A DNA stretch of 46,659 nt from Dehalococcoidia bacterium (GTDB lineage Bacteria; Chloroflexota; Dehalococcoidia; SHYB01): assembly GCA_034420775.1 (NCBI GenBank), contig DAOUKZ010000177.1, forward strand, positions 1 to 46,659, read 5' to 3'. The notes under the pieces are model-generated. The model was not told where the DNA came from. It worked only from the letters and a program-made list of their open reading frames with translations, and did no database searches. Each line of letters starts with the position of its first letter. Position 1 is the stretch's first letter. This document shows positions 7,518 through 40,197 of the stretch, piece after piece. Both the position numbers and the translations under genes were made by a program.

Positions 7518-9215
7518 CTAGCGGTACCAGCCGCTCCGCAGCACCACGGCGGGGAGGTCGCCGGTCTCCTCGCCGTCGGCGATGGTGCGCCTTCCGTTCA
7601 CCAAGACATGCTCGACGCCGTCGGCGTTCTGCACCCAGCGGGTGTCGCCGCCGGGGAGGTCGTTCTTCGGCTCCTTGTAGTGCGTTTCGAGCTTGTCGAG
7701 GTCGAAGACGGCGATGTCGGCCTTCATGCCGGGCTTCAGCACGCCGCGGTCCGTCAGGCCGATCCACCGCGCGTGGTCGGCGGTGACCTTCTTGACGCCG
7801 TGCTCGAGGTCCATGACCTCGTTCTCGACGACCCACTTCTTCAGGAAGTAGGAGGCCTCGCCGCTCTTGCACTCGCTGGCGATGTGCGCGCCGGCGTCGG
7901 AGTTCATCGGCGAGACGTGGGCGTGGTTGAGGAGCGGGGCGCGCGATTCGTCGGCGAGCCACTTTTCCTCCGGCATAAAGCGCATCTCGAACATCGTCTC
8001 GCCGTCCTCGGCGAGGGCGAGGTCGAGGAGCACGTCGGCCTTGTGCTTGCCGGTCTCGGCGGCGAGCTGCGGGATGGTCTTTCCGTTGAGGCCGCGGTTG
8101 GCGCCGGTGGCCGCCTTGTGCACCGTGAAGTAGTCCCAGACGATCCGGGGACGGCGCATGTTGCGGGCGTCCATCGTGGCTTCGGCGTCGATCTCGTCGC
8201 GCAACTGCTGCCGGATCGAGGCGTCGCCGAAGCGGGCGCGCCGCACTTCCGGCGCCTTGCCCATGATGTCGAACCACGTGTCCATGCTGTTGAAGGTCGT
8301 GGTGCCGGAGTTGATGCTGAAAATCTTGTAGAAGGGCTGCGACGCCACGACGCCGTAGATCTCGGCGCCCTTGGTGCGGGAGTCGGCCATGAAGTCCCAG
8401 GCGTCGGAGTTGCTGACGCCGTTGAGCTGGATCGTCGTGCCGCTCCGCTTGGCGAGGTTGAAGATGAGCTCCTTGTCCTCTTTGCTCATTCCCGCGAAGA
8501 GGCCCTGCGGGATCAGGCCCATGGCCGTGGCGTTGAGCGACTTGAGCTCGTCGGCGAGGGCGTAGAGCTCCTCGGGGGCCGCCTGACGGCTGGGGACGGG
8601 CTCGCCGCGCGCCCCGAAATGGCTCGGCGCCCGCGACGTGGTGAGGCCGAAGGCGCCGGCCTCGATACCGTCGTGCAGCACGCGGCGCATCTCGGCGATC
8701 TCGTCCTCGGTGGCCTCGCGCTCGAGGGCCGCCTCGCCCATGACGTAGTAGCGCAGCGTCGAGTGGCCGACCATGGTCACCGCGTTGACGCCGAGGCCCT
8801 TATCCATGCTCTTGAGATATTCGTCGGTGGTCACCCAGTCCCAGGGGAGGTTCTCCTGGAATATCTTGGGCGCGATCTCCTCGACCTGGCCGAACATCAG
8901 GATGATGTACTCGCGGTCTTCCGGCTTGACGGGCGCCAGCGTGTAGCCGCAGTTGCCCATCAGCACCGTGGTCACGCCGTGCCACGACGACGAGGAGCCC
9001 CGCGGCTCCCAGATGAGCTGGCCGTCGAGGTGGGTGTGGGGGTCGATGATGCCCGGCGTCACCACGAGCCCCGACGCGTCGATGGTCTCGCCTCCGGTGC
9101 TCAGGCCGGGCCCGATCTCCGCGATTTCCGAGTCGCGCACCAGCACGTCGGCCGATTGCCGAGGTGCGCCGGTCCCGTCGACGACCGTGCCGCCCTTGAT
9201 GAGGATTTCGCTCAT
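7518..9215 (-). CDS. D-aminoacylase-type (N-acyl-D-amino-acid deacylase family) amidohydrolase
   Basis: MSEILIKGGTVVDGTGAPRQSADVLVRDSEIAEIG...VVTPGIIDPHTHLDG is the characteristic N-terminus with a metal-binding HxH. I prefer ATG 9215 (preceded by GAAAGGGGA) to the track start at 9266. Confidence 0.85.
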   Translation of the reverse strand: MSEILIKGGTVVDGTGAPRQSADVLVRDSEIAEIGPGLSTGGETIDASGLVVTPGIIDPHTHLDGQLIWEPRGSSSSWHGVTTVLMGNCGYTLAPVKPEDREYIILMFGQVEEIAPKIFQENLPWDWVTTDEYLKSMDKGLGVNAVTMVGHSTLRYYVMGEAALEREATEDEIAEMRRVLHDGIEAGAFGLTTSRAPSHFGARGEPVPSRQAAPEELYALADELKSLNATAMGLIPQGLFAGMSKEDKELIFNLAKRSGTTIQLNGVSNSDAWDFMADSRTKGAEIYGVVASQPFYKIFSINSGTTTFNSMDTWFDIMGKAPEVRRARFGDASIRQQLRDEIDAEATMDARNMRRPRIVWDYFTVHKAATGANRGLNGKTIPQLAAETGKHKADVLLDLALAEDGETMFEMRFMPEEKWLADESRAPLLNHAHVSPMNSDAGAHIASECKSGEASYFLKKWVVENEVMDLEHGVKKVTADHARWIGLTDRGVLKPGMKADIAVFDLDKLETHYKEPKNDLPGGDTRWVQNADGVEHVLVNGRRTIADGEETGDLPAVVLRSGWYR

Positions 9216-9380
9216 GCCGAGTCCCCTTTCGCTCGCATCACATTTCCGGCGGCCAGTGTACGCCATCGGCCCAACGGACGGAAGGGCGCGTGGCCGCTTG
9301 AGTAGCAGGGGTGACGGCGCGCAAAGGTGGCACCCTTCGAAGGCCTGTGGCGGTTGAAAGGGGGCCCCTCAGCTCACTCT

Positions 9381-9640
9381 TCTCCCGTGGGAGACCTTTG
9401 CAAAATTAGGGCCGCGGGCTCCATTGACGTTGGCGCACCCCTCCCCGCTCCCCGCCCTCACCCCAACCCTCTCCCAGCGGGAGAGGGGGCAAGACCCCGC
9501 CCATCTGCCGCTCTCTTCTCGCCAGCGGGTTACGCAAAGGATCCGTCGGGAGAAGAGGCAAGACCTCCCCGCTCCGGCGCGCCCTGCGGGCGCGTGCCCT
9601 CCCTCAGTCCCTCCCAAGAGGGAGGGAGGTTTAAGGGCGC
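9381..9640. repeat. cluster of G/C-rich composite hairpin repeats (family copy 1)
   Basis: Hairpins present: TCTCCC-GT-GGGAGA (9381..9394); CCCTCTCCC-AGC-GGGAGAGGG (9467..9487); CGCGCCC-TGC-GGGCGCG (9578..9594); TCCCTCCC-AAGA-GGGAGGGA followed by GGTTTAAGG (9608..9635). Segment 9389..9502 is nearly identical to 23568..23682. Confidence 0.85.
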
Positions 9641-9679
9641 CCCCACAGGGAGAGGCGGGAGGGCACCGAGGCCGCGCCT

Positions 9680-11788
9680 TTACTCCATCGACTCGCCGAC
9701 GAGCTCGATGACGTCGACCACTTCGACTTCACCGGCCTTGCCGGCGGACTCGACGCCCTCGGTGAGCATCTGGAGGCAGAAGGGGCAGGAGACGCCGATC
9801 TTGTCGGGGGCCGTGTCGAGGATCTGGTCGGTGCGGACGTGGTTGATGCGGCGGCCGGAGCCCTCCTCGACGAACATGTGGCCGCCGCCGGCGCCGCAGC
9901 AGAAGCCGCGCTCGCGGTTGCGGAGCGGCACCTCTTGCAGCTCGACGCCGGGGATGGCCGCCACGATGTCGCGGGGCTCGTCGTAGATGCCGTTGTGACG
10001 GCCCAGGTAGCAGGAGTCGTGGTAGGTGACCTTGCCGGCGATGGGCTTGCCCAGCTTCAGCTTGCCCTCGTCCATGAGCCGCCGTACGAAGGTGGCGTAG
10101 TGCTCGACCTCGTAGCTGCCGCCGAAGTCGGGGTACTCATGCTTCAGCGTGTTGAAGCAGTGGGGACAGGTGGTGACGATCTTCATCGACTTGTGCTCGT
10201 CGAGCAGCTCGACGTTCCGCCGCGCCATGATCTCGAAGAGGTACTCGTGGCCGATGCGCCGCGCCGGGTCGCCGGTGCAGCCCTCGGCGTTGCCAAGGAT
10301 GGCGTAGTTGACTCCGGCGCGTTCCAGGACGCGGGCCATGGCGCGGGCGATGGCCTGGCTGCGCTCTTCGAGGGCGGCGGTGCAGCCGACCCAGAACAGT
10401 ACGTCGACAGCCTCCGAGTCCCCTGTACCGTTGCCCAGGCTCTTCACCGGCAGACCATCCGTCCAGTCCATCCGCGAGGCCTGCGTGCCGCGCCAGGGAT
10501 GGCCGCGGGTTTCGAGGCTCTGCAACGTCTGCTGTGCCGTGGACGGCATGTTCGACTCGGTCATCACCAGGTGGCGCCGCAGATCGACGATGCTGTCGAT
10601 GTGATCGACGAGCACCGGGCACTCCTGGACGCAGGCGCCGCAGGTGACGCAGTCCCAGACCCACTCCTCGGTGAAGTGGCGTCCTAGGAGGGGCTGTTCG
10701 TCCGACGCCGTCTCGCGCTCCTCCTGCGTGGTTGCCTTGGCGACGGCGGGGGCGACCTCGAGCAGGTTGTGCTTGACGCCCTCGACGAGGTCCATGGGCG
10801 AGAGGGGCTTGCCGCTGATGTTGGCGGGACAGTTGAAGGTGCAGCGTCCGCAGACGGCGCAGGCGTAGCCGTCGACGAGCTCCTTCCAGGTGAACTCGTG
10901 GGGGTGCTTGGCGCCCCAGACCTCGGCCTCTTCCATGTCGGGGATGGGCCGGAGCGCGCCTCGGGGCGTGAGCTTGCGGAAGAAGGCGTTCAACGGCGAG
11001 GCGATGATGTGGAAGTGCTTGGACAACGGGATGTAAACAAAGAAGCCCACCGTGATGAGGAAGTGGACCCAGTAGAAGAGGCCGTGCAGGGTCTTGGCCG
11101 CGGAGGCAGAGAAGCCCGCCGAGCCAAGCGCCGTGCCGATGCTCCCTGAGATCGGGGTGCCGGCGGCGATCTCCGGCGTGATGGCCCCGCCGAGGTAGGC
11201 GACGGCTGCGGGGTTGGCCTCGGCGGCGGCGACGATCGAGATCTGGGTGAGCTGATGGAAGAGCATCAGCGATCCCGTCGCCATGAGGATGATGCCAGGC
11301 TCGTAGCCCTGGAGCCCGTCGAGGCGCTTGGGACGGCCTATCCAACGCCGCACCGCCGCCCAGACCACGGCGGCGAGTACGAACACCGTGAGGATGTCGA
11401 GCCACCAGAAGAAGAACTCGAGGCCGGTGGGCGAGAGGACGAAGGCCGAGTTGGTGGGCTTGATGGGGTCGAGGACGAGGAAGAGGGTGTAGCCGACGAG
11501 CTTCGAGATGAAGCCCCAGAAGATGATGAAGTGGCCGATGCCGGCGAGGTCACGCCAGCGCCACGAAACGCTCATCAAGACCCGCCGCTGGCCGAAGACG
11601 ACGAGGACCATACCCCACAGGCGTTGCAGGGGGTGGTCGAAGCGCGGGTCTTCGCGCTTCCCCAGCAAGACCGGCGCCACGAACCGGGCGTAGATGGCGT
11701 AGGAGCCGGCGGCGATGCCGACAATGCCGATGACGAAAAGCGGGATCCAGAGGGGAAGGACGCCGAAGAGGTCGCCGGGAACGATCAT
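9680..11788 (-). CDS. membrane-anchored Fe-S oxidoreductase (HdrD/GlpC-like, two CCG domains, N-terminal polytopic domain)
   Basis: The 702-aa product has an N-terminal multi-TM region with conserved His (SKHFHI). It has two 4Fe-4S ferredoxin motifs (CAVCGRCTFNCP, CVTCGACVQECP). C-terminal Cys-rich CCG-type motifs are present (CPHCFNTL, GFCCGAGGG, CPFCLQML). Confidence 0.85.
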   Translation of the reverse strand: MIVPGDLFGVLPLWIPLFVIGIVGIAAGSYAIYARFVAPVLLGKREDPRFDHPLQRLWGMVLVVFGQRRVLMSVSWRWRDLAGIGHFIIFWGFISKLVGYTLFLVLDPIKPTNSAFVLSPTGLEFFFWWLDILTVFVLAAVVWAAVRRWIGRPKRLDGLQGYEPGIILMATGSLMLFHQLTQISIVAAAEANPAAVAYLGGAITPEIAAGTPISGSIGTALGSAGFSASAAKTLHGLFYWVHFLITVGFFVYIPLSKHFHIIASPLNAFFRKLTPRGALRPIPDMEEAEVWGAKHPHEFTWKELVDGYACAVCGRCTFNCPANISGKPLSPMDLVEGVKHNLLEVAPAVAKATTQEERETASDEQPLLGRHFTEEWVWDCVTCGACVQECPVLVDHIDSIVDLRRHLVMTESNMPSTAQQTLQSLETRGHPWRGTQASRMDWTDGLPVKSLGNGTGDSEAVDVLFWVGCTAALEERSQAIARAMARVLERAGVNYAILGNAEGCTGDPARRIGHEYLFEIMARRNVELLDEHKSMKIVTTCPHCFNTLKHEYPDFGGSYEVEHYATFVRRLMDEGKLKLGKPIAGKVTYHDSCYLGRHNGIYDEPRDIVAAIPGVELQEVPLRNRERGFCCGAGGGHMFVEEGSGRRINHVRTDQILDTAPDKIGVSCPFCLQMLTEGVESAGKAGEVEVVDVIELVGESME

Positions 11789-12897: not shown

Positions 12898-13755
12898 CTA
12901 CGAGGTGCTGCCGCCGTCGAGGTAGACGCAGGCGCCGGTCATGAAGTCCGAGGCCGGGGACGAGAGGAACGCGGTGAGCAGGCCGACCTCGCGGGCCTCG
13001 GCGAGCCGGCGCATGGGGATTTCCGACAGAATCTTCGAACGCAGCCGCTCGTCCTCCATCGACACGCGGATGAGGTCCGTGTCGACGTAGGTGGCGCAGA
13101 TCGCGTTGACCTGCACGCCGTGGCGGGCCCACTCGACGGCCACGGACTTCGTCATGCGGTTGAGGGCGGCCTTGCTGGTGTCGTAGGTGAAGCGGTAGCG
13201 GCCAGCGCGCTCCGCGTTGATCGATGAAATGTTGACGACCTTGCCCGAGCCGCGCTCCAGCATGTGCGGCCCGACGGCCCGCATGCAGAGGAATGCGCCG
13301 CGGAGGTTGACGTCCATGACCTGGGACCACTCCTCCATCGAGTAAGGCTCAAAGAAGCCGGGGAAGTTGTCCGCCGTGGCCGGTTTCAGACCGGGGAGCG
13401 GCACCAGCGGCTTCACCACGGCGATACCCGCGTTGTTGACCAGCACGTCGATCCCGCCGAGCTGGGACAGCGCCCCTTCGACCATCGCCGCGACGCTGGC
13501 CTCGTCGGTGATGTCGGTGGGGATGGCGGCGGCCCGGCGGCCCATGCCGCGAATCTCGTCCGCCACCGCGTCCAGCTCGTCGCGGCTGCGGGCGGCGACG
13601 CAGACGTCGACGCCGGCCTCGGCGAGGGTGAGGGCGATGGCCTTGCCGATACCGCGGCCCGCGCCGGTCACGATGGCCTTCTTGCCTTCGATGGAGAACT
13701 CGGGGAGGGTCTTCAAGGGTGGCGGTCCCGCTCGCTCAGATGATCTCGCGCACAA
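12898..13755 (-). CDS. SDR family oxidoreductase (FabG-like)
   Basis: GKKAIVTGAGRGIGKAIAL provides the cofactor motif, with NNAG and a YxxxK (YDTSK). The start is uncertain. ATG 13755 overlaps the upstream gene by 20 nt; TTG 13716 would give MKTLPEFSIEGKKAIVTG. Confidence 0.85.
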   Translation of the reverse strand: MCARSSERAGPPPLKTLPEFSIEGKKAIVTGAGRGIGKAIALTLAEAGVDVCVAARSRDELDAVADEIRGMGRRAAAIPTDITDEASVAAMVEGALSQLGGIDVLVNNAGIAVVKPLVPLPGLKPATADNFPGFFEPYSMEEWSQVMDVNLRGAFLCMRAVGPHMLERGSGKVVNISSINAERAGRYRFTYDTSKAALNRMTKSVAVEWARHGVQVNAICATYVDTDLIRVSMEDERLRSKILSEIPMRRLAEAREVGLLTAFLSSPASDFMTGACVYLDGGSTS

Positions 13756-16120
13756 CGAGATCGAGATAGGCTTCTTCGCTCATGCCGACTACGCCGCGCA
13801 GAATCGGCTCGTTGTGCTCGCCGAGCACGGCGCACGGACGGTGCACCGCGAGCCGCTCGCCGTCGAGGATGATGGGGCACTGGACAATCGTCGCCTCGCC
13901 GAGCTCCGGGTGCGGAACCCTGGCGACCGCGCCCCGCGCCGCGAGGTGCTCGTCGCGCTCCAGGTCGGGGCCGTGGGAGACGACGCCGGCGGCGATGCCC
14001 GCGGCCTGGAGGCGGTAGAAGGCGTCCCAGGGCTCGAGTGGGGCGCACCAAGCGGCCAGGGCGGCCTCGACGGCTTCGACCGAGCCGTCGCCGGCGCCGG
14101 TGAGGTCAGCGGCCTTGGCCAGCATTTCGGCGCCGGTGGCGGTGACGACGATCCATTGGTCGTCACCGGCGCATTGGTAGCAGCCCTGCAGCGGCGCGCC
14201 GAGCGCTCCGGCGCGGTTCCCCGCCGGCCTCGCCGTCTCGCCGTTCACCGTCCATTGCAGGACCTCGGGGCCGACGAGCGTCGCCCCGCATTCGAGCTGC
14301 GACACGTCGACGTGGTCGCCCTTGCCGGTGACCTCGCGGCGGAGCAGGCCGTCGAGCACGCCGAGGGCGCCCAGATAGCCCGCCATGTAGTCCATGTGGG
14401 AGTGGCCGAAGCCGAGCGGGCCGCCGCCCTCGTAGCCGAAGAGCCAAGTGAGGCCGCTGAGTGCCGACGAGGTCGGGTGATAGCTCGGCCACGAGGCCCG
14501 TGGGCCGGTCTGACCGAAGCCGGTGAGGCTTGCCATGATCGCCTTCGGGTTGGCCTTGGACACCGCCGCGTAGTCCGCGCCGAGCCGGCCCATCGTGCCG
14601 CCGGTGAAGTTCTCGAGCACCACGTCGGCGTGCCCGATGACGTCGAGCGCGACCGCGGCGGCGTCGGGCTTCTTCATGTCGATGGTGACGCTCTGCTTGT
14701 CGCGGTTGATGTCGTGGAAGGTGTAGCTGCCGTTGAGGTTGATCTCGCCGTCCCGGAAGGGGACGAGCATGCGCGACGGGTCGCCGATCTCGCGGGGCTC
14801 GACCTTGACGATCTCTGCGCCCAGGTCGCCCAGCGCCCGCCCCATCACGGGGCCGGCGATGTTCCAACAGAAGTCGACGACACGGACGCCTTCCAAGGGC
14901 ATCCGGCGCGCATCCTCGGTGGGGGCCGGCCACTCGGGCCGCTCCGACCAGTCGCCCTCGACTTCGGCGGTGTGCTCGCCGGGCCGGGGCGGCGAGCCCG
15001 GGTCCGGCGGTTGGAGGCCCGCATCGCCGCGGAAGGGGAGGCAGGGCATGGTGTGGCGCTCGCCCTCGTGGCCGGGCCGGGGGTCGGCGAGGGCGTCGAA
15101 GCTGCCGCGGAACTGGAGCTGGTCGTCCTCCAGGGTCTTGCCGGGCGGACGCACGGGCGCGTTGGGGATTCCGCGCTCCGCGCCGCCGACGAAGAGCTCT
15201 TCTTCGGTGACGAGGCGGGCGAAGCCGCCCACGCGCTCGTTGATGAGGTCGCGGTTGGCGCGCCGGTAGACGAGTTCGGCGAAGGCGTCGTCATCGAGCG
15301 GGCCGGGGTCGTACCCCACGCGTCTCATCCACTCGATCATCGCCTGCCATTGCTGCTGCGAGGATAGACCGACGAAGACGTGGCCGTCCTTCGCCTGGTA
15401 GACCTTGAACGGCGTGGCGAGGGGGTGGTCGCCGTTGATGCGCTTGACGATTTCGCCGTTGCAGAAATAGAAGGAGTGGGCGGTCTCCGACATGTCGAAC
15501 GAGGTCTCTTGCGAAGAGAGGTCGATGCGGGCGCCCTGCCCTGTTTTGCGGCGGCGGTAGACGGCGCCGAGGACGGAGATCGCCGCCCACACCGAGGTGC
15601 AGTGGTAGGCCTGGAGGGCGGGCGCGGTGAGCGGCTCGCGGTCGGGGTCGCCTGTGAGTCCCATCAGGCCGCCCATGGCCCAGGCGACGATGTCGGAGCC
15701 CTTGAAGTCGCTGAAGGGGCCGTCGCTTCCGAAGTCGGTGGCCGAGAGGTGGATGAGGCCAGGGTTGGCCGCCGCCAGCACCTCCGGCGCGACGCCGAGC
15801 GCCTCGAGCCTGCCGGGAGGCAGCGCGTCGAGCAGCACGTCGGCCTTGACGGCGAGCGCGACGAACCGGTCGCGGCCCTCCGCCGACGCGAGGTCACACT
15901 TGACCGACCGGGCGCGGGAATAGCCGTACCAGAAGAGCAGGCTCTCCCCGTCCCCGCCCGCCAGCGGCGGCGCGGTACGCAGCGCCGACCCCTCCGGCAA
16001 CTCGACGGCGACGACGTCGGCGCCCATGTCGGCGAGCAGCTTGCAGCAGAGGGCGAGCTTGGGGTCGGGGAGCGCAAGCACGCGCACACCCTGAAGCGAT
16101 CGGACGGTCTGGTCGGCCAT
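13736..16120 (-). CDS. tandem-fused family III CoA-transferase (794 aa)
   Basis: The N-terminal half begins LQGVRVLALPDPKLALCCKLLADMGADVVAVELPEG. The second half begins LEGVRVVDFCWNIAGPVMGRALGDLGAEIVKVEPRE. The C-terminal half has HMDYMAG (Asp present); the N-terminal half has ALQAYHCTS at the equivalent place. Confidence 0.9.
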   Translation of the reverse strand: MADQTVRSLQGVRVLALPDPKLALCCKLLADMGADVVAVELPEGSALRTAPPLAGGDGESLLFWYGYSRARSVKCDLASAEGRDRFVALAVKADVLLDALPPGRLEALGVAPEVLAAANPGLIHLSATDFGSDGPFSDFKGSDIVAWAMGGLMGLTGDPDREPLTAPALQAYHCTSVWAAISVLGAVYRRRKTGQGARIDLSSQETSFDMSETAHSFYFCNGEIVKRINGDHPLATPFKVYQAKDGHVFVGLSSQQQWQAMIEWMRRVGYDPGPLDDDAFAELVYRRANRDLINERVGGFARLVTEEELFVGGAERGIPNAPVRPPGKTLEDDQLQFRGSFDALADPRPGHEGERHTMPCLPFRGDAGLQPPDPGSPPRPGEHTAEVEGDWSERPEWPAPTEDARRMPLEGVRVVDFCWNIAGPVMGRALGDLGAEIVKVEPREIGDPSRMLVPFRDGEINLNGSYTFHDINRDKQSVTIDMKKPDAAAVALDVIGHADVVLENFTGGTMGRLGADYAAVSKANPKAIMASLTGFGQTGPRASWPSYHPTSSALSGLTWLFGYEGGGPLGFGHSHMDYMAGYLGALGVLDGLLRREVTGKGDHVDVSQLECGATLVGPEVLQWTVNGETARPAGNRAGALGAPLQGCYQCAGDDQWIVVTATGAEMLAKAADLTGAGDGSVEAVEAALAAWCAPLEPWDAFYRLQAAGIAAGVVSHGPDLERDEHLAARGAVARVPHPELGEATIVQCPIILDGERLAVHRPCAVLGEHNEPILRGVVGMSEEAYLDLVVREII

Positions 16121-16238
16121 TGGCCACCTCTGGCGCGGCGCTTGGGGCTCGGTCGGCGCGGCGGCCCCCTATGTATACTGCCTCCGCCCCCGACCCTCAA
16201 CCCTCAAGCGTAAGGTGGGGCGCAGAGGGAGCCCGATC

Positions 16239-17420
16239 ATGAGCCCGGTCCTCGACGGAATCCGCGTCCTCGACTTCTCGCGCTACATCGCCGCGCCGAC
16301 CGCCTGCGCCCTGCTTGCCGATGCCGGCGCCGAGGTGGTGCGTGTCGAGGCGCCGGGAGGCGAGGAGGACCGGCGGATTGGCGTCATGGGGCCGCAGGGA
16401 CAGCCGATGTGGTTTGCCTGCACCGGGCGGCACAAGCGGGGGATCACCCTCGACCTCCGCAACGAGGCGGCGCTGCCGCTGCTGCGCGATCTGGTCCGCC
16501 TGGCCGACGTCGTGGTGCACAACTACGCCCCCGGCTCGCCGCAGGCCGCGCTCCTTCACTACGACGCGCTCGCCAAGGCGAACCCGTCGATCATCGTCGC
16601 CGCCGTCTCGGCGTACGGGCAGACGGGGCCGTTCGCCGAGAAGACGGGTTTCGACGTGACCGTGCAGGCCACGGCAGGCATGATGGACCTGACGGGCCAA
16701 GCCGACGGTCCGCCGACGCGCTCCGGCGTCGCCATCGGGGACTTCCTGGCGGGCTACAACGGCGCGTTCGGCGTGATGCTGGCGTTGTGGGAGCGCAACG
16801 CGAGCGGCCTCGGCCAGATGGTCGACGTGGGGCTCTTCGACAGCACCGTGCTCCCGGTCGTGGCCCAGGCCATGGTCTCCGAGTTCCGCCACACCGGGCG
16901 CGCCCGGCGGCGCATCGGCAACGGGAGCTGGTACTCCTTCGCCGACAGCTTCGAGGCGCTCGACGGGACGGTGATGATCTGCCCCGCCATCGAGTCGCAG
17001 TGGCGGCGGCTGGCCCGCACCGTCGACCGCGCCGACCTACTCGACGACCCCCGCTACCGCGACAACCCCAGCCGCTTCGAGCACCGCGCCGAGCTCGGCG
17101 CCATCGTGCAGGCGTGGGTGGGCGAGCGCACCGTGGACGAGGTCGTGGCTGCCATGGACGGGGCCCGTGTCCCCTGCTCGCGTGTCCTCACCGTCCTCGA
17201 GATGGCCGAGCATCCCCAAGTCCACGCCCGCGAGATGCTGGTCGAGGTCGGCCGCGAGGGTGAAGACACGCTGACGGTGGCGGGGTTCCCCATCAAGCTC
17301 TCCCGCACACCGGCGACGGTCGAGGGCGCCCCGCCGCAGGTGGGGGAGCACAACGGCTGGGCGTACGGGGAGCTGCTTGGACGGGATGCGGCGGCGCTGG
17401 CGGAGGCGGGCTTGATTTAG
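16239..17420 (+). CDS. family III CoA-transferase (single domain)
   Basis: MSPVLDGIRVLDFSRYIAAPTACALLADAGAEVVRVEAPGGE, GQTGP, and the active-site stretch VAIGDFLAG are all present. ATG 16239 follows GAGGGAG; the track start is 16215. Confidence 0.9.
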   Translation: MSPVLDGIRVLDFSRYIAAPTACALLADAGAEVVRVEAPGGEEDRRIGVMGPQGQPMWFACTGRHKRGITLDLRNEAALPLLRDLVRLADVVVHNYAPGSPQAALLHYDALAKANPSIIVAAVSAYGQTGPFAEKTGFDVTVQATAGMMDLTGQADGPPTRSGVAIGDFLAGYNGAFGVMLALWERNASGLGQMVDVGLFDSTVLPVVAQAMVSEFRHTGRARRRIGNGSWYSFADSFEALDGTVMICPAIESQWRRLARTVDRADLLDDPRYRDNPSRFEHRAELGAIVQAWVGERTVDEVVAAMDGARVPCSRVLTVLEMAEHPQVHAREMLVEVGREGEDTLTVAGFPIKLSRTPATVEGAPPQVGEHNGWAYGELLGRDAAALAEAGLI

Positions 17421-17430
17421 GCGGGCAACC

Positions 17431-18603
17431 TCAAGCGATGGCCTCGTGCAGCTTTTCCCAGGGCACCAGGCGGCCGTTCGACCGCTTTTGAAGTTCGTCG
17501 CCGCCGTAGGCGACGACGACGTCACAGGTAAGGGGCGAATCGGCCAGGTGGCCCTCCACGCGCCGCGCACCGGCGAAGAGGCTCGACGACGGCGTCTGCG
17601 ATGATTTAGCTTCCACCAACGTAATCCGAGAGGGGTCCTCGATGACGAGATCGACCTCGGCGCCGTCCCGATTTCGATAGAAGAAGAGGCCCCTCGTTTC
17701 GCCGCGGTTGATGCGGTGCTTGGCGATTTCCGAGACGACCCAAGTCTCGAAAATGGCACCGCGAAGGGGATGCGTGCGCAACTGTTCAGGCGTGCGGATT
17801 CCGATGAGCCAGCAGGCGAGGCCGGTGTCGTAGAAGTGAAGCTTCGGCATCTTCACCAGGCGTTTGCCGAGATTGGCATGGAAAGGCGGAAGGCGAAAGA
17901 CGATGAAGGTGGCTTCCATTACGCCGAGCCATGCTCTCGCCGTCGGCTGCGAGATGCCGCAGTCGCTCGCCAATGCGGAGTAGTTGAGCAGCTGCGCGGT
18001 CCGCCCGGCGCACAATTCCACGAAACGCTGGAAGGTCGCGAGATCGCCGATGTTGCTGACGGCCCGCACGTCCCGTTCGACGTAGGTGGCGACATACGAA
18101 CGGAGCCACTCCGAAGGGTCGAGGGTCTGGTCGAAAATCCGAGGATAGCCGCCGGCCAGCAGCGCCTCTTCCAGTGTCCCTGGATGCCGATCGAACTGCA
18201 CAACCTCGGTTCGAGTCAGGGGCAGGAGGTGATGCACCGCGGTCCGCCCCGCGAGAGACTGACTCACCGACTCGGCAAGGGTCAGGTTCTGTGAGCCCGT
18301 CAGGACCCACCGGCCCGGCCGCGGGTCTGCGTCGATGATCCCCTGCAGGTAGGAGGGGATCTCGGGGACCCGCTGCACCTCGTCGATAATGGCGCCTTCA
18401 GCGTGCTGGGCCAAGAAGGCGCGGGGGTCCTCCGTCGCAAAGGCCCGAACGTCCGGATCCTCCAGACTCACATAGCCGTGCTGGGGAAAGACGGCCTTGG
18501 ACAGGGTCGTCTTGCCGCTCTGACGCGGCCCCGTAAGGGTTATGGAGGGCGACTTCCGGGCCGCCTCCAGCAATTTTGGCGCAAGGTCTCGCTGGACTGG
18601 CAT
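17431..18603 (-). CDS. AAA ATPase with DUF4143-type C-terminal domain
   Basis: Walker A is TGPRQSGKTTL. The length (390 aa) and layout are typical of AAA_14 + DUF4143 ATP-binding proteins. Confidence 0.8.
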   Translation of the reverse strand: MPVQRDLAPKLLEAARKSPSITLTGPRQSGKTTLSKAVFPQHGYVSLEDPDVRAFATEDPRAFLAQHAEGAIIDEVQRVPEIPSYLQGIIDADPRPGRWVLTGSQNLTLAESVSQSLAGRTAVHHLLPLTRTEVVQFDRHPGTLEEALLAGGYPRIFDQTLDPSEWLRSYVATYVERDVRAVSNIGDLATFQRFVELCAGRTAQLLNYSALASDCGISQPTARAWLGVMEATFIVFRLPPFHANLGKRLVKMPKLHFYDTGLACWLIGIRTPEQLRTHPLRGAIFETWVVSEIAKHRINRGETRGLFFYRNRDGAEVDLVIEDPSRITLVEAKSSQTPSSSLFAGARRVEGHLADSPLTCDVVVAYGGDELQKRSNGRLVPWEKLHEAIA

Positions 18604-18663
18604 AGGTCGACTCTATCATGAGGTGTCGGCTAATTCAAAGTTGAACTTTTGATTAGCCGACAC
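18604..18663 (-). promoter_or_regulatory. candidate leaderless promoter plus 41-bp palindrome for the ATPase gene
   Basis: The minus strand reads TTGAAT (18638..18633), a 17-nt spacer, TGaTAGAGT (18618..18610), 6 nt, then ATG (18603). The palindrome GTGTCGGCTAAT...ATTAGCCGACAC (18623..18663, 12-bp perfect arms) overlaps the -35 and spacer. Confidence 0.5.
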
Positions 18664-18704
18664 TTGCGGAGGTATCAACCTCTCTGCGCCCCGCCAGGCG
18701 ACCG

Positions 18705-18900
18705 GGGGACGGGCGACCACAAGAGTCGCCCCTACGGAGATTTGCGCATTCAGGGCTTCCGGCTCCCTGGACGCCGGCCGCACCCCGCTCCAACCCCCGC
18801 CCTCACCCCTGCCTCTCCCAGCGCGGGAGAGGGGAACTGCCCCGCTCCACCCGTGATCCAACCCACCGGCGGGCACCCACAAGAGGTGCCCCTACGGGAA
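18705..18900. repeat. G/C-rich composite hairpin repeats (family copy 3)
   Basis: Hairpins present: GGGCGAC-CACAAGA-GTCGCCC + CTACGG (18711..18737); CCTCTCCC-AGCGC-GGGAGAGG (about 18812..18832); GGGCACC-CACAAGA-GGTGCCC + CTACGGG (18871..18897). Confidence 0.8.
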
Positions 18901-18920
18901 GGGGCTAGGCTGGCCGGTGC

Positions 18921-19820
18921 CTACGCCAGGCCGAGGCGCTTGGCGTGTTCGAGGCGTTCTTGGGCGACGCGGACCATGGCGGTGTCGATGAGGAAGCCGT
19001 CGCGTTGGATGGCGGTGGTGCCGGCGGCTTCGGCCTCGGCGAGGGCTTCGATGACGCCCTTCCACTCCTCGATCTCTTCCGGTGTGGGGGAGAAGACCTC
19101 GTTGATGATGGGCACGTGGCTGGGGTGGATGCACATCATGCCGTCGTAGCCCAGCTGCTTCGACTCGACCGCCATCGCGCGCAGGCCGTCGTGCTCGCCA
19201 ACGTGCGGCCAGAGGCCGGTGATGGGGTAGGGGACGTCGGCGGCGCGGGCGTCGACCAGCACCGAGCCGCGGATGTGCAGCGACTCGGCGCCCTCGGGCG
19301 TCCAGGTGTAGCCGATGGCGCGGGCGCCGTCGCCGTCCTTGGCCGAGCCGTAGCCCATGTAGGCGAGGCGCGGGGACGCCGTGCCGATCTCATAAGCGAG
19401 GCGGATCGACTGGGCCGTCTCCAGGAGGGGGTTGATCAGTACGCGGCCGATGGGGAGCCCGGCGCGGTGCTCGAAGTGGTCGAGCAGGGTCGCGGCGGCA
19501 ATGATGTCCTCGGGGCCACGCGTCTTGGGCAGGAAGATACCGTGCAGCCCGGCGCAGACTACGGCTTCGAGGTCGTCGCCCGCCTCGTAGGTGTCGATGC
19601 CGTTGACGCGGACGAAGATGGTGTAGCCCTGCGCGGCGAGCTCCTCGGTGACCCGCCGCACCATCTCGCGGGCCTGGGGACGGTGCGCTTCGGGCACGGC
19701 GTCCTCGAGGTCGAAGACCAACGCGTCGGCGCCGTACTTCACCGCCTTGCGCATCCAGTCCTCTTTGTTGCCGGGCACAAAGAGGATCGTGCGCAGCGGA
19801 CGTGGCTCGTTGGCTTCCAT
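18921..19820 (-). CDS. HpcH/HpaI aldolase / citrate-lyase beta (CitE-like) acyl-CoA lyase
   Basis: LRTILFVPGNKEDWMRKAVKYGADALVFDLEDAV is the CitE family N-terminal signature. The product is 299 aa. The gene lies 10 nt downstream of the fused CoA-transferase gene on the same strand. Confidence 0.85.
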   Translation of the reverse strand: MEANEPRPLRTILFVPGNKEDWMRKAVKYGADALVFDLEDAVPEAHRPQAREMVRRVTEELAAQGYTIFVRVNGIDTYEAGDDLEAVVCAGLHGIFLPKTRGPEDIIAAATLLDHFEHRAGLPIGRVLINPLLETAQSIRLAYEIGTASPRLAYMGYGSAKDGDGARAIGYTWTPEGAESLHIRGSVLVDARAADVPYPITGLWPHVGEHDGLRAMAVESKQLGYDGMMCIHPSHVPIINEVFSPTPEEIEEWKGVIEALAEAEAAGTTAIQRDGFLIDTAMVRVAQERLEHAKRLGLA

Positions 19821-19830
19821 GGGTGGTTCC

Positions 19831-22173
19831 TTAGGCGGGGAGGCCGTGGCCGACCGCCGTCGTCACGCCCTTCTCGTTGAGCTCGTCGATCTGGCGGTCG
19901 GAGTAGCCGAACTCGCGGAGGACGGACTCGGTGGCGAACCCCAGCGGCCTTGGCGTCTCGAAGCGGGTCTCGTACTCCGAGAAGTGGTAGACCGGCGCGC
20001 TGCGCCAGAACTTGCCGTGCTCGGGCAGCTCGTCCTCGCGGGCGAGGTCGTTGAGCCGCACCTGAGGGTCGTTGAGCATGAACTCGTGGTGTTCCGTCCC
20101 GTCGGCGCGCACGGCGGGGACGCCCGCTTGGAGCAGGATGTCCTCCCACTGCGCGGCGGGACGGCGGGCGAAGGCCGCGGTCAGGGCGGCGCGCAGCGCC
20201 TCGTCGTTCGCCATGCGCGACTCCGCCGTGGCGAAGCGGGCGTCGGCGGCGAGCCCGGCAGCCTCGGCGAGCGCCGTCCAGTGCTCCTCCTTGGGGCACA
20301 TCAGGAAGAGCCAGCCGTCGCCGCACTCGTAGAGCCAGTGCAGGGCGTTGTAGCCGCGCTGGCCCTGGTCGGGGATCGGGTCGGCGGGCTTGCCGTCGTA
20401 CTGCAAGCTCCATGAGGAGACGGCGTAGGCCAGCGAGCTCAGCATCGTCGTCTCGATGTACTGTCCCTTGCCGGTGCGCTCCCGGGCCTGCAGCCCGATC
20501 ATCGCCGCGGTGGCGACGCCCAAGGCGCCGGCGGGGTCGGGGAAGACGCGGTCCTTGGGCGGGTTGCCCACCCCCGACTCGATGATACCGGACCCGGCGA
20601 TCGCATTCGGCGAGGAGTGGAAGCCGGGCCGGTGCTTCCAGGGCCCGTAGGTCCCGTAGCACGAGCCGTAGACGTAGACGAGCCGCGGGTTGATCGCGCT
20701 CAGCGTCTTGTAGTCGATCTGGAGTTTCTCGACGACGCCGGTGGGACGGAAGTTGTGCAGGAAGAGGTCGGCCTTGGCGGCGATCTTGTGGACGATCTCG
20801 CGGCCCTCCTCCGTCTTGAGGTTGAGGATCACGCTCTCTTTGCCCGCCGCCGACTTGCTGTACGTCGACGACCAGTTGCGGCGCATCGGGTCGCCGGTGT
20901 TGGGCTCGACCTTGATGATGCGGGCGCCGAGCTCGGCGAGCAGGGTCATGGAGAAGGGAGCGGCGTAGAAGTAGGCGCATTCGAGGACGGTCACGCCGTC
21001 GAGGGGCCGTCGCACCGACTTGCCGGTGGGCTCGGTGATCCGCCGCGGGGCCGTGGTCAGCGCTGACACGACCTCGCCGGTGTGCTGCCCAAGCGTCGGC
21101 GCGGGCGTGCCGAAGACCGACGGTGTGTCCGACATAACGGCGAGCGGGCCGATCTGCACCGTCTCGCCGAGGCCGGGCTCGACGACGGTCTGACGGCGGC
21201 CGTTGGCGATGGTCTGCTCGTGGTCGAGGTATTCCTGCGCGCCGAGGAAGGGGTCGCCGCCGACGTCGTCGTTGGTGAAGATCTCCATCCACTCGTCGAA
21301 GGTCTTCTCCTTCATGCGGATCTCGACCATTTCGAGGATGGCTTCGAGGTCGCGGCGGGAGGGGAACTGGTCGGGCATGTGGTGGAAGGCGGGGTCGTCA
21401 TAGAGATGTTCGAGTCCCAGCACGCGCATCCAGTTGCGGAAGAGGTGGGGCTGGCGGCTGCACATCTGGATGTAACGGCCGTCGCTGCATTCGGCGGTCA
21501 TGAAGGCGAGGGGCATGACGCCGAAGGCGGGGCCGTCGTCGTCGGCGTTGGAGTGCATCCGGTGGAGGAAGCCGCCCATGTCGTAGGCGGTGAGGGCGGC
21601 GAGGTGGCTCACGTCGACGCGCTGCCCCACGCCGGTCGTCTTGCGCGCGTAGAGCGCGGCGAGCAGTCCGTGCACCGCGATGGCGGCCGAGCCGTAGGAG
21701 GAGATCGGGGTCGGCGTGTAGATCGGCCCCTCGCGGAAGCCCTCCTGTGAGATCATGCGGCCCGTCTTCGCCGCGATGATCGGCTCGTAGCCCGGCAGGT
21801 CGCGGTAGGGGCCCTGCTCGCCGAACGCCGTGATCGAGGCGTAGACGAGGCTGGGGTTGACCTCGCGCAGCGCGTCGTAGCCGACGCCCAACCGGTCGGC
21901 GACGCCCGGGGCGAAGTCTTCGATCACGCCGTCGGCGGTGGCGGCGAGCTGCTTGAACGTCGCCAGGCCCTCCGCCTTCTTCAGATCGACGACCGCGCTC
22001 TTCTTGCCGCGGTTGCGCACGAGGAACCCCGCGCTTCCCCGCGTCGGGTCTCCGCCGGGCGGCTCGACCTTGACGACCTCCGCACCGTTCTCCGCCAGGA
22101 ACATGCCGGCCATCGAGCCGGACATGCTCACGCTGAGCTCCAACACCCGCATGCCTTCAAGCGCCGTCGTCAT
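19831..22173 (-). CDS. tandem-fused family III CoA-transferase (780 aa)
   Basis: The N-terminal half begins LEGMRVLELSVSMSGSMAGMFLAENGAEVVKVEPPGG. The second half begins LDGVTVLECAYFYAAPFSMTLLAELGARIIKVEPNTG. The C-terminal half has FPDPAGA (Asp present); the N-terminal half has PISSYGSA at the equivalent place. Confidence 0.9.
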   Translation of the reverse strand: MTTALEGMRVLELSVSMSGSMAGMFLAENGAEVVKVEPPGGDPTRGSAGFLVRNRGKKSAVVDLKKAEGLATFKQLAATADGVIEDFAPGVADRLGVGYDALREVNPSLVYASITAFGEQGPYRDLPGYEPIIAAKTGRMISQEGFREGPIYTPTPISSYGSAAIAVHGLLAALYARKTTGVGQRVDVSHLAALTAYDMGGFLHRMHSNADDDGPAFGVMPLAFMTAECSDGRYIQMCSRQPHLFRNWMRVLGLEHLYDDPAFHHMPDQFPSRRDLEAILEMVEIRMKEKTFDEWMEIFTNDDVGGDPFLGAQEYLDHEQTIANGRRQTVVEPGLGETVQIGPLAVMSDTPSVFGTPAPTLGQHTGEVVSALTTAPRRITEPTGKSVRRPLDGVTVLECAYFYAAPFSMTLLAELGARIIKVEPNTGDPMRRNWSSTYSKSAAGKESVILNLKTEEGREIVHKIAAKADLFLHNFRPTGVVEKLQIDYKTLSAINPRLVYVYGSCYGTYGPWKHRPGFHSSPNAIAGSGIIESGVGNPPKDRVFPDPAGALGVATAAMIGLQARERTGKGQYIETTMLSSLAYAVSSWSLQYDGKPADPIPDQGQRGYNALHWLYECGDGWLFLMCPKEEHWTALAEAAGLAADARFATAESRMANDEALRAALTAAFARRPAAQWEDILLQAGVPAVRADGTEHHEFMLNDPQVRLNDLAREDELPEHGKFWRSAPVYHFSEYETRFETPRPLGFATESVLREFGYSDRQIDELNEKGVTTAVGHGLPA

Positions 22174-22305
22174 GGGTCAACCTCCGCGGGAGTTCCCGCC
22201 GACCGCATTGTAGTGGATACGCCGCCGCGGGCAATCCGCCCCCTACGCAAATCCCGCCGATGCGAGTAGGGTTGGAGCCACCGCGTGCGACCGAAGGAGG
22301 CTCCC

Positions 22306-23205
22306 ATGGCCATCGACCCGAAACCGATCCGCAGCCTGCTCTTCGTTCCCGGGAACCGCGAGGACTGGATGCGCGACGCCCCGAAGTACGGCTCCGACGG
22401 GCTGATCTTCGACATGGAGGGCGCCCTGCCGCCCGACCAGATCGCCGAGGGCCGCGAGATCATCCGCCGCGTGCTCGATGAGACCGGCGGGGCCGGCCCG
22501 CAACGGATCGTGCGCGTGTCGGGCGCGGCCTCCGAGAAGAACCGCGCCGACCTCGAGGCCATCGTCTGCGCCGGCCTTGACGGAGTGATGGTCCCCCAGA
22601 CGCGCGGTCCCGACGACATTGCGGCCATCGACGCCGCCCTTACCGAGCTCGAACGCGAGCGGGGGCTGCCCGAGGGCGGCATCGTCATCACGCCGCTGCT
22701 GGAGTCGGCCGGGGCCATCCGCCAGTCCTACGAGATCGCCACGGTTTCGCCGCGCATCGCGTACATGGGGTCGGGCGTCTCGCGCCGGGGCGACATCGTC
22801 CGCTCCATCGGCTACCGCTGGACGGAGCAGGGCCTCGAGTCGCTCTACTTCCGTTCCAAGGTGCTACTCGACGTCCGCGCCGCCGGCGTTCCCTACCCCA
22901 TGAGCGGCCAGTGGAGCCAGATCGGGAACCTCGAAGGTCTGCGCGCCTTCGCCAACCAGACCCGCGACCTTGGCTACGTCGGCATGAGCTGCATCCACCC
23001 CACCCACGTCCCGGTCATCAACGAGGTCTTCACGCCCACCCAGGAAGAGATCGAGAGCTGGCGCAAGACGCTCGAGACGATGGAGGCGGCTTGGGCCGAG
23101 GGGCGCGGCGCCGTCCGCTTCGAGGACGGCATGGTTGACGAGGCCCACATCCACACCGCACGCCAAGGCCTCGACTTCGCCCGCAAACTCGGCGTCATCG
23201 ACTAG
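22306..23205 (+). CDS. HpcH/HpaI aldolase / CitE-like acyl-CoA lyase (paralog)
   Basis: MAIDPKPIRSLLFVPGNREDWMRDAPKYGSDGLIFDMEGAL, with clear paralogy to 18921..19820 along the whole length. ATG 22306 follows GAAGGAGG; the track start is 22285. Confidence 0.85.
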   Translation: MAIDPKPIRSLLFVPGNREDWMRDAPKYGSDGLIFDMEGALPPDQIAEGREIIRRVLDETGGAGPQRIVRVSGAASEKNRADLEAIVCAGLDGVMVPQTRGPDDIAAIDAALTELERERGLPEGGIVITPLLESAGAIRQSYEIATVSPRIAYMGSGVSRRGDIVRSIGYRWTEQGLESLYFRSKVLLDVRAAGVPYPMSGQWSQIGNLEGLRAFANQTRDLGYVGMSCIHPTHVPVINEVFTPTQEEIESWRKTLETMEAAWAEGRGAVRFEDGMVDEAHIHTARQGLDFARKLGVID

Positions 23206-28352: not shown

Positions 28353-29138
28353 ATGATGGCTGAGAGCGAACTGCACAAGAGAGTGTCAAGAAGCCTTCGC
28401 GTGGGAGATGATGTCGGCCAGTCGTTTGGCGAGTCCCTCAAGGTAGCGGATGCCCTTCCTCCCAATACCGCCATAAGAAAAGGTCCGGCCCAAGGACTTC
28501 GTCCTGACCATCGAATAATGACCACGGAAGGGGTGCTCGTCGCAGTCGAATACCGCTATAGGCATCCGATTCCTCAAGAGAAGCTCAATAGGTTGATGGC
28601 TGAGGGGATGCCGATACTGGAGATCGACCTACGCGACCTGACCGGAAAGCCTACTGAATCCGAAATACGGGAGTACCTTGCTCAAGAGGGCGGGAGAGTG
28701 AACGACAGGAGCAAGCGTTTCCTGTACATGCCCACCATCGACGACATTATTCGGCGCGCAGGTGGAAGCACTGAACAAGGCCCCGGCCACAACTACGGAG
28801 GCCTCCGGTGCCTTGTGCCAGGTTGCAGGGGACAGGTGGCAAATGCGCATAGTGGAGTATTCGTCGATCCTCAGATGGCTTTGGGTGAAGAGCCTTGGGC
28901 CTACGATAGACTGCTCCGAGAAAGGCGCATCAGGTCATACACGTTGCCCAGGTTCGCCTGCGTGGACCACATAGGCCTTCCTGCCATGTATGCAACACCT
29001 GGAGGCCTCAATTGGTATAGGACGCCAGCCTCGCCTAACTCAGCACGCATCGGCCACGGCCAAACGACACGAGATATAGGTGGTGGGCTCAGGGCAATGG
29101 TGAAGATACAAACCGGGATTCATGGCCCGCCAAGCTAG
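28353..29138 (+). CDS. orphan hypothetical protein in a low-G+C patch (possible PD-(D/E)xK/CoiA-like nuclease N-terminus)
   Basis: This 261-aa ORF is the only long ORF in a roughly 0.9-kb segment of visibly lower G+C. Its codons often end in A/T, unlike its neighbours. Residues about 6-105 (ELHKRV...RPDHRIMTTEGVLVAVEYRYRHPIPQEKLNRLMAEGMPILEIDL) loosely follow the CoiA-type pattern. The C-terminal part has CLVPGC and CVDH clusters. Confidence 0.5.
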   Translation: MMAESELHKRVSRSLRVGDDVGQSFGESLKVADALPPNTAIRKGPAQGLRPDHRIMTTEGVLVAVEYRYRHPIPQEKLNRLMAEGMPILEIDLRDLTGKPTESEIREYLAQEGGRVNDRSKRFLYMPTIDDIIRRAGGSTEQGPGHNYGGLRCLVPGCRGQVANAHSGVFVDPQMALGEEPWAYDRLLRERRIRSYTLPRFACVDHIGLPAMYATPGGLNWYRTPASPNSARIGHGQTTRDIGGGLRAMVKIQTGIHGPPS

Positions 29139-30405: not shown

Positions 30406-31182
30406 CTACAGAATCTGCGACAGGAACAGCTTCGTGCGGTCGTTCTTGGGGTTGTTGAAGATGTCGTTCGGCGGGCCGTCCTCGACGATGATCCCTTCGT
30501 CGAACATCATCATGCGGTCGGCGACCTCTCTGGCGAAGCCGAGCTCGTGGGAGACCACGATCATGGTCATGCCGGAGGCGGCCAGCTCGCGCATCACGTC
30601 CAGCACTTCCTTGATCATTTCGGGGTCGAGCGCGGAGGTCGGCTCGTCGAAGAGCATGATGTTCGGCTGCATGGCGAGGGCGCGGGCGATCGCGACCCGC
30701 TGCTGCTGCCCGCCGGAAATCTCAGCGGGGTATTTGTCGGCCTGCTCGGGAATGCCGACGCGTTCCAACAGCTCCATAGCGACGTTCCTGGCCTCTTGGT
30801 CCGGCAGGTGCCGCACCTTCATCGGCGCCAGGGTAATGTTCTGCAACACCGAGAGGTGGGGGAAGAGGTTGAACGACTGAAAGACCATGCCCACATCCCG
30901 ACGTATGGCGTCGATGTTGCGGATGTCCTGCGTCATTTCGACGCCGTCCACGATGATGTCGCCCCGCTGGTGTTCCTCTAGCCGGTTGATGGCGCGAATG
31001 AAGGTCGATTTGCCCGAACCGGACGGCCCGAAGATTACGACGACCTCGCCCCGCTTGATGGTGGTCGTGATGCCCCGCAGGACATGGAAGTCGCCGAACC
31101 ACTTGTGGACGTCGCGGCAGACGATCATGTCGTCCGCGCCTACCGTCGGTTTGTTCTCTACCGGTGCTTCGTTCGTGGCCAT
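30406..31182 (-). CDS. polar amino-acid ABC transporter ATP-binding protein (AapP/GlnQ-like)
   Basis: Walker [10 protein letters not shown], signature ISGGQQQR, and Walker [12 protein letters not shown] are all present. The product is 258 aa. Confidence 0.95.
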
Positions 31183-31204
31183 GACAGCCCCCGATCTCTG
31201 ATGT

Positions 31205-32785: not shown

Positions 32786-32812
32786 GGCTTGGTGCGGTGT
32801 TCTTGCGGCGTG

Positions 32813-34018: not shown

Positions 34019-34115
34019 GTAGGCCTTACAGAACGAAAGGGGCGGCCGACACTAGGCCGGCCGCCCCTTCATTCATCCGTTCTTGATTCCTTGCCTCAAA
34101 CGAGCATGGAACGCG

Positions 34116-35192: not shown

Positions 35193-35335
35193 CACGGCCC
35201 TCCTTCGTGAGTTTGGAGTGGAGTGCAATGTTGGCATGGAGAATACTTGTTTGGGCAACAATGGTCAATGAAATGATTGGACTATACGTAACCGGTTGTC
35301 GATGCCGCCCCGCCCCTCGCAGGGGCCAGCGGCCG

Positions 35336-36388: not shown

Positions 36389-36431
36389 GACGGTGGTTAC
36401 GCTACGGTGCCGGCCTTCGCATAGATAGAGA

Positions 36432-40168: not shown

Positions 40169-40197
40169 TTGACAGCCCCTAGGGGCGGCACTAGAGT
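40169..40197 (+). promoter_or_regulatory. sigma-70-like promoter candidate for the third amidohydrolase gene
   Basis: TTGACA (40169..40174), an exact 17-nt spacer, then TAGAGT (40192..40197). It lies about 58 nt upstream of ATG 40256, which has an AAGGAG RBS. Confidence 0.55.

Follow-up and report, generated by a model that had tools for sequence, protein, structure and literature searches.

A stretch of 46,659 nucleotides from a Dehalococcoidia bacterium (contig DAOUKZ010000177.1 of assembly GCA_034420775.1), hereafter the window, encodes three proteins, F1, F2 and F3, each of which carries two family III coenzyme A (CoA)-transferase domains of the CaiB/BaiF type in a single chain. F1 (2763..5216, plus strand) is 817 amino acids (aa) long, F2 (13736..16120, minus strand) is 794 aa long and F3 (19831..22173, minus strand) is 780 aa long, and a further gene, S1 (16215..17420, plus strand, with an ATG at 16239), encodes a single-domain family III CoA-transferase. 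Pfam profile searches returned one PF02515 match in S1 and two full matches in each of the unbroken open reading frames (ORFs) of F1, F2 and F3 (profile positions 1-366 of 366; E values of 1e-158 to 1e-186), and with S1 included all seven domains spanned positions 1-366 of the 366 (E values of 1e-110 to 1e-186). The arrangement of three double-domain genes beside one single-domain copy, which had been proposed from the sequence by eye (hereafter the original prediction), was thus borne out. A six-frame scan of the window found no family III domains beyond those of F1, F2, F3 and S1. The NCBIfam equivalog scores of the window CoA-transferases were all far under cut-offs, such that no specific function could be transferred to them, and no DddD family was returned; an exact-sequence lookup for F3 found no record. 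The window has a G+C content of 65-71%, and its closest genome matches are Dehalococcoidia metagenome-assembled genomes (MAGs), at protein identities of 85-98%.

The column of the catalytic aspartate (Asp169 in Frc and CaiB), which lies at the N terminus of a long central helix, was placed by MAFFT alignment of the seven domains, by phmmer searches against solved structures and by hmmalign, and all three methods put identical residues at that column. The aspartate was present in S1 (Asp176, codon 16740..16742) and in the C-terminal half (C-half) of each fused protein, as Asp572 of F1 (codon 4476..4478), Asp577 of F2 (codon 14390..14392) and Asp546 of F3 (codon 20536..20538). The N-terminal halves (N-halves) carried Tyr172 in F2 (codon 15605..15607, TAC), Ser159 in F3 (codon 21697..21699) and Asp174 in F1 (codon 3282..3284), and the residues and coordinates of the by-eye placement were correct. 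Within F2, residues 1-390 (14951..16120, minus strand) make up the N-half, which is predicted to be non-catalytic, and residues 408-794 (13739..14899, minus strand) make up the C-half, which is predicted to be catalytic and whose Asp577 aligned with Asp178 of PDB chain 9fn0_B. The tyrosine of the F2 N-half is kept in close orthologues and in BbsE ("dnqaYrm"), a subunit of benzylsuccinate CoA-transferase considered below. Besides Asp176, S1 keeps Pro28 of the AGP motif, Asn103 of the ENF motif and Asp147, as homodimeric enzymes of the family do.

Homologues of F1, F2 and F3 were collected at E ≤ 1e-20 (360 listed of 449, 1396 and 1840 proteins), and a library of 1.84 billion proteins clustered at 50% identity supplied its 150 best cluster representatives. 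Fusions of roughly 800 aa proved to be widespread: nearly all of the collected homologues and cluster representatives had two domains and a length of 750-840 aa, and full-length two-domain proteins made up about 340 of the 360 matches listed and, at the 50% identity level, accounted for 118 clusters or more. Across all sets, aspartate occupied the column in 5 of about 452 N-halves versus 450 of 452 C-halves. The F2 set had it in none of 102 N-halves, where Y, A, E, F, S, L, W, H and others stood instead, and in 101 of 102 C-halves. The F3 set likewise lacked it in all 117 N-halves (S in 97; A, G, T or C also occurred) and had it in all 117 C-halves. For F1 the counts were 3 of 115 N-halves (M in 47, Q in 29, E in 14, A in 12, and others) and 115 of 115 C-halves, and among the cluster representatives they were 2 of 118 and 117 of 118.

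The divergence between halves extended to other motif residues. In 337 fused proteins the AGP-motif proline (Pro28 of S1) had a frequency of 0.08 in N-halves versus 0.97 in C-halves, and the ENF-motif asparagine (Asn103 of S1) had a frequency of 0.03 versus 0.96. The counterpart of Asn103 in MCT, Asn100, hydrogen-bonds the pantetheine of CoA (PMC9196870). The alignments held no acidic residue that the N-halves of F1, F2 and F3 families have in common and that could replace the missing aspartate, and a compensating acid was therefore rejected; the family-specific acids that did occur lie away from the Asp column in sequence. Overall identity was similar for N-halves and C-halves in the three families (52 versus 57%, 53 versus 57% and 59 versus 57%). 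We conclude from the alignments that the Asp-less N-half is, as far as sequence can tell, the ancestral and near-universal state of the fused family, and that fused forms appear to follow a strict rule in which the N-half is dead and the C-half is live. The architecture of an Asp-less half followed by an Asp-bearing half is the normal state of a large and widespread enzyme family and not a local oddity. The proposal that two of the three window proteins had lost the aspartate locally was not sustained, given the 5 aspartates in about 452 N-halves and the fact that BbsE and the upstream genes of unfused pairs (see below) are Asp-less too.

The original prediction also held that F1 retains aspartate in both halves. 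The residue is literally there, aligned with the tyrosine of BbsE, and among 115 orthologues it is common only to the two closest relatives of F1 and one other protein. The F1 N-half was assigned to the dead lineage despite Asp174 because it has alanine at the AGP proline position and serine at the position of the pantetheine-binding asparagine. We conclude that Asp174, judged by this pattern, is a recent and non-conserved substitution and that it is probably not functional.

Two proteins in the collection had other arrangements. The cluster representative P0506 (798 aa) has its polarity reversed, with Asp169 in the N-half and asparagine at the C-half column, and is the sole such fused homologue. 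P0468 is a stand-alone relative of the F3 N-half, 400 aa long with serine at the column, and may be an unfused dead subunit.

Matches to solved structures related F1 and F2 to BbsEF, in which chain A is BbsE and chain B is BbsF. The N-half of F1 had chain A (9fn0_A) as its best PDB match (E = 5e-50), and for the N-half of F2 the same chain was the best or near-best match (E = 1e-35). The C-halves of F1 and F2 both had chain B (9fn0_B) as their best PDB match (E = 2.5e-58 and 9e-49, respectively). Profile scores gave the same assignment, as 9fn0_A scored 281 and 220 bits on the F1 and F2 N-half profiles versus 142 and 122 bits on the C-half profiles, and the reverse was found for 9fn0_B. Moreover, 9fn0_A has tyrosine at the Asp column and 9fn0_B has Asp178, and a D178-CoA adduct is mentioned in the title of PDB entry 9fol. 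Based on these affinities, F1 and F2 look like fusions of BbsE-like (Asp-less) and BbsF-like (Asp178) benzylsuccinate CoA-transferase subunits.

Unfused adjacent pairs of the same kind occur on the Agrobacterium plasmid pAt (FY156_28455/28450) and on a Cupriavidus plasmid (K2O51_RS33870/33865). In both, the upstream gene is N-like with glutamate or serine at the column, the downstream gene is C-like with aspartate, an ATGA junction gives the two genes a 4-bp overlap, and the pair adjoins genes for a MaoC dehydratase and a CoA-ester lyase. Because the split pairs have the same order and the fused halves are homologous to BbsE and BbsF, the fused genes seem to have arisen from a heteromeric pair by loss of a stop codon. 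The ancestor would have consisted of adjacent, translationally coupled genes, with an upstream Asp-less partner of the BbsE type and a downstream Asp-bearing catalytic subunit of the BbsF type, and loss of the stop codon would have joined the subunits via a linker of about 20-30 residues.

AlphaFold2 models of whole chains were confident for both F2 (predicted local distance difference test [pLDDT] of 95.7, predicted template-modeling score [pTM] of 0.96) and F3 (pLDDT of 93.9, pTM of 0.94), and the linker was placed confidently in both, with pLDDT values of 71-97 across it. Each half of the F2 and F3 models superposed on solved family III subunits with template-modeling (TM) scores of 0.76-0.90. 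The pTM values of 0.94-0.96 imply that the halves are predicted to sit in a fixed arrangement. We consider it probable, from the models and the residue pattern together, that the two halves of each chain form an intrachain pseudo-heterodimer in which one site is live and that the N-half is an indispensable non-catalytic partner. The original prediction of pseudo-dimers with a single competent site is therefore most likely right, and its interlock of the two halves is a matter we infer.

In the proposed mechanism, the halves would pair as the interlocked ring-in-ring dimer that is typical of family III. The live site would be built from the large domain of the C-half, which would supply the aspartate nucleophile, the AGP proline and the pantetheine-binding asparagine, and from the N-half's small domain, and the other site would be dead. 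The N-half would be an obligatory structural partner under purifying selection and not a decaying remnant. An organic acid would receive CoA from a donor thioester, by analogy with the family probably succinyl-CoA or acetyl-CoA, with the C-half aspartate forming the aspartyl-anhydride and aspartyl-CoA intermediates. For F3, the product would probably be a hydroxy-dicarboxylyl-CoA that is cleaved by the two CitE-like lyases encoded on either side. Under this model the small domain should show higher conservation in the N-half, where it would line the live site, than in the C-half, and this was the case for F3 (59.7 versus 47.9%).

Several observations weigh against the pseudo-heterodimer model. 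Small-domain conservation in F1 and F2 ran opposite to the prediction, at 46-47% in N-halves versus 53-55% in C-halves. Position 147 of S1, 29 residues before the catalytic aspartate, is the acidic position of the canonical G-Y-D/E motif. The acid is kept in about 90-97% of N-halves, and BbsE and the upstream split genes retain it too, whereas Gly, His or Ala stands there in C-halves, in the downstream split genes and in BbsF; the model gives no explanation for retention of this acid on the dead side. The corresponding codons, approximate and derived from residue numbers, are 15680..15682 for Asp147 of the F2 N-half and 21733..21735 for the glutamate of the F3 N-half. In addition, each family shows a well-conserved residue of its own at the Asp column (Tyr among F2 relatives, and Ser for 97 of 117 F3 relatives), which would fit some role for it. 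The F3 halves are not specifically BbsE- or BbsF-like, and F3 may represent an older or separate fusion with unchanged polarity. No solved chain spans more than half of the AlphaFold2 models (TMq ≤ 0.47). Finally, the pseudo-heterodimer model is built from sequence and predicted structure.

One alternative is that the fusions are artefacts of assembly or frameshift that unite two neighboring genes. Unfused pairs with a 4-bp overlap do occur in other bacteria, and one indel in such a pair would be enough to look like a fusion, and a long-read assembly, L010, has an apparent frameshift within its F3 orthologue. That orthologue (8001..10339) is in two pieces with overlapping coordinates, residues 1-290 and 288-780, reflecting either a sequencing error or a pseudogene. 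Full-length ORFs are, however, intact in six Dehalococcoidia MAGs that are independent of one another and include long-read chromosome assemblies, where the orthologues are 85-98% (F3) and 84-93% (F2) identical to the window copies and the gene order is kept as CitE-like lyase, F3, CitE-like lyase, a variable insert, S1, F2, short-chain dehydrogenase (SDR) and CCG/Fe-S protein. Fused genes were also found by tblastn in cultured Variovorax, Rhodococcus, Cupriavidus and Bosea, on replicons whose sequences are finished. Moreover, the halves are joined through a dedicated linker of 20-30 residues and not by an overlap, and two-domain proteins dominate the census. With intact ORFs in six MAGs and hundreds of fused homologues, the artefact explanation was rejected as having next to no chance of being correct. 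A different arrangement of genuine fusions would be that halves swap between chains, with the N-half of one chain pairing with the C-half of another to give dimers or higher oligomers that still hold one live site per N/C pair. Such swapping would resemble unfused relatives, which form alpha2beta2 (BbsEF) or (alpha-beta)6 (SmtAB) assemblies (PMC5592240), and intrachain pairing is itself a predicted arrangement. The high pTM and the confident linker of the AlphaFold2 monomers would not be expected without an intrachain partner, however, and the linkers, at about 20-30 residues, are short, so we regard chain swapping as improbable.

Other readings concern the N-half itself, which could be active in a non-canonical manner (as a lyase, hydratase or thioesterase, or with Tyr, Ser or Glu in place of Asp), making the fusion a bifunctional enzyme. 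Purifying selection as strong on N-halves as on C-halves would be consistent with activity, as would the substituted residue kept within the F2 and F3 clades and the retention of Arg53, Asp98 and the position-147 acid, and DddD is known to have a second, lyase activity (PMC7174347). Across families, however, the residue found at the column may be Y, S, M, Q, A, E, F, W, L, H, G or T, which is unlike a catalytic residue, the pantetheine-binding asparagine and the AGP proline are lost as well, no acid conserved across all N-halves takes the place of the aspartate, and separate lyase genes flank F3. Activity of the N-half is therefore doubtful, and we give it little weight. An N-half of the alpha-methylacyl-CoA racemase type was also considered; racemases as a rule keep the equivalent aspartate (Asp156 in MCR), and the MCR chains were weak matches, such that this candidate was rejected. 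A more speculative reading starts from the reciprocal pattern in which N-halves keep position 147 and lose the equivalent of Asp176 and C-halves do the reverse. The N-half might then do more than serve as scaffold: the live site might be truly composite, with residues of both halves required, or the N-half site might be a regulatory or second-substrate pocket for an acyl-CoA or acid. The conserved cluster, with its three fused and one homodimeric paralogue, two CitE-like lyases, an SDR and a hydratase, would in that case encode an undescribed dicarboxylate-catabolic route of SAR202-like Dehalococcoidia; we rate this reading as unlikely, though not negligible.

The genes around F2 and F3 suggest a catabolic setting. 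F3 is flanked on both sides by genes for CitE/HpcH-type acyl-CoA (CoA-ester) lyases, one directly downstream (18921..19820, minus strand; PF03328, CitE/RipC-like but under equivalog cut-offs) and a second, found by Pfam scan, divergent from F3 (22285..23205, plus strand), and the lyase-F3 adjacency is kept in six MAGs. Also near F3 are genes for SDRs, an enoyl-CoA hydratase, an FAH-family hydrolase, a 2-hydroxyacid dehydrogenase, a thioesterase, an ABC transporter (30406..35261, an operon for a solute-binding protein, two permeases and an ATPase) and four Amidohydro_2 paralogues (PF04909; 25184..26272, 37556..38722, 38736..39911 and 40169..41383). Amidohydro_2 genes stand directly beside fused CoA-transferase genes in unrelated genomes as well (L001 1187..6962; L004 6088..6912), which suggests a recurring functional link. 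A transferase, a hydratase and a CitE-like lyase together resemble the itaconate, citramalate and malyl-CoA routes, and the fused CoA-transferases of the window therefore probably activate dicarboxylic or hydroxy acids, an assignment made by analogy. In SAR202-type Chloroflexi, few gene families have expanded as much as the family III CoA-transferase paralogues, and these have been argued to channel recalcitrant marine organic acids into CoA-dependent catabolism without ATP cost (PMC5395668).

Downstream of F2 lies an SDR gene (12898..13755, minus strand; PF13561/PF00106), the ORF of which, if begun at its first start codon, shares 20 nucleotides with the end of F2 (13736..13755), and the SDR-F2 adjacency is kept in five MAG loci, L005, L006, L007 and L010 among them. 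A metagenomic protein, P0017 (745 aa), combines an F2-like C-half with an SDR in one chain (PF02515 and PF00106) and reflects either another fusion event or a frameshift in the call. Next to the SDR-F2 pair, in the window and also in L005 and L010, is the gene for a 702-aa protein with two CCG cysteine-rich domains and a 4Fe-4S dicluster domain (9680..11788, minus strand; HdrD/TfrB/LdhH-like), which may be an electron-transfer partner of the pathway. Between the CitE-like lyase gene and S1 lies an AAA_14/DUF4143 ATPase gene (17431..18603, minus strand). It is present in the window and in L008 and had no tblastn match in L005, L006, L007 or L010, where the lyase-S1 gap measures 0.1 to 2 kb; the cluster is otherwise syntenic, and the ATPase gene seems to be a variable insertion in it. 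Elsewhere in the window are two tandem paralogous genes with a DUF4286 domain in the C-terminal part of each product (41461..42153 and 42155..42853, plus strand), two ORFs without a Pfam match, of 261 aa (28353..29138, plus strand) and of 420 aa (35336..36598, minus strand, upstream of the ABC transporter operon), and, at the window edge upstream of F1, a gene for a Fic/DOC-family protein with an N-terminal DUF4172 domain (907..2028, minus strand).

If the pseudo-heterodimer model holds, fused chains should be annotated with one active site each and not as two enzymes, and the C-half aspartate would be the target for mutagenesis or engineering. The fused proteins would also illustrate cleanly how a heterodimer that contains a pseudo-subunit turns into a single chain. 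The known mechanism of family III is left unchanged.

Compared with the homodimeric family III enzymes (Frc, YfdW, YfdE, CaiB, SUGCT and Mct), the window proteins share the fold, and the C-halves and S1 share the catalytic aspartate. The homodimers are interlocked, with active sites shared across subunits, and have two identical sites, whereas the fused proteins have one aspartate per pseudo-dimer. Heteromeric assembly has precedents in the family. The 3-hydroxypropionate cycle uses malyl-CoA lyase as well as a family III CoA-transferase, SmtAB of Chloroflexus. SmtAB is a heteromeric (alpha-beta)6 enzyme, and BbsEF is alpha2beta2 (PMC5592240). SmtAB and the split gene pairs are made of two polypeptides and the window proteins of one, and the split pairs match F1 to F3 in order (Asp-less subunit, then Asp-bearing subunit), in profile affinity (N-like, then C-like) and in the kind of genes beside them (MaoC dehydratase and CoA-ester lyase).

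BbsEF is a close comparison. It has two paralogous family III subunits with the nucleophile only in chain B/D (Asp178), chain A/C has tyrosine at the column as does the F2 N-half, the N-halves of F1 and F2 are nearest to chain A and their C-halves to chain B, the reciprocal position-147 pattern is present (Asp in chain A, Gly in chain B), and BbsEF is the top structural match of the F2 model (TM scores of 0.86-0.90). BbsE and BbsF differ in being separate polypeptides, whereas F1 to F3 are single ORFs of 780-817 aa with a linker, and identity to the window proteins is only about 30%. Neither a BbsG/H/CD/AB-type set nor a glycyl-radical enzyme turned up in a Pfam scan of 30 neighboring genes; given this context, with CitE-like lyases, SDRs, an enoyl-CoA hydratase and amidohydrolases as neighbors, the substrate is therefore expected not to be benzylsuccinate.

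The other comparison is DddD, of Marinomonas, Halomonas and Endozoicomonas, which is about 830 aa long and, by its published architecture, carries tandem CaiB domains in one chain as F1 to F3 do. The active-site aspartate of DddD is Asp602, reportedly established by Alcolombri et al. in 2014, and falls in the C-terminal domain. DddD is a biochemically characterized dimethylsulfoniopropionate (DMSP) CoA-transferase/lyase with CaiB domains at residues 1-416 and 439-821 (PMC7174347), whereas the window proteins gave no sign of lyase activity and separate CitE-like lyases are encoded beside F3. Pfam scanning found no BCCT transporter, dddB or dddC among the window genes scanned, and no dddD was identifiable by tblastn among the fused genes on plasmids of cultured bacteria. 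Two collected proteins, P0403 and P0480, resemble DddD in length and Asp position, and their identity as DddD was not established. In SAR202 Chloroflexi, where CaiB/BaiF paralogues are expanded, some have DddD as their top Swiss-Prot match (PMC5395668). In literature on the BbsEF structure, fused family III enzymes, Rv1866 and DddD Asp602, with classic papers covered in part, no description of the N/C asymmetry was found. On this point the original prediction, which knew of no characterized example of the architecture, needs correcting, as DddD has two CaiB domains in one chain and BbsEF is a solved heteromer with the nucleophile in only one subunit (PDB 9fol). We conclude that F1, F2 and F3 are uncharacterized members of an established type, namely, DddD-like or BbsEF-like fused family III CoA-transferases with a pseudo-catalytic partner half.

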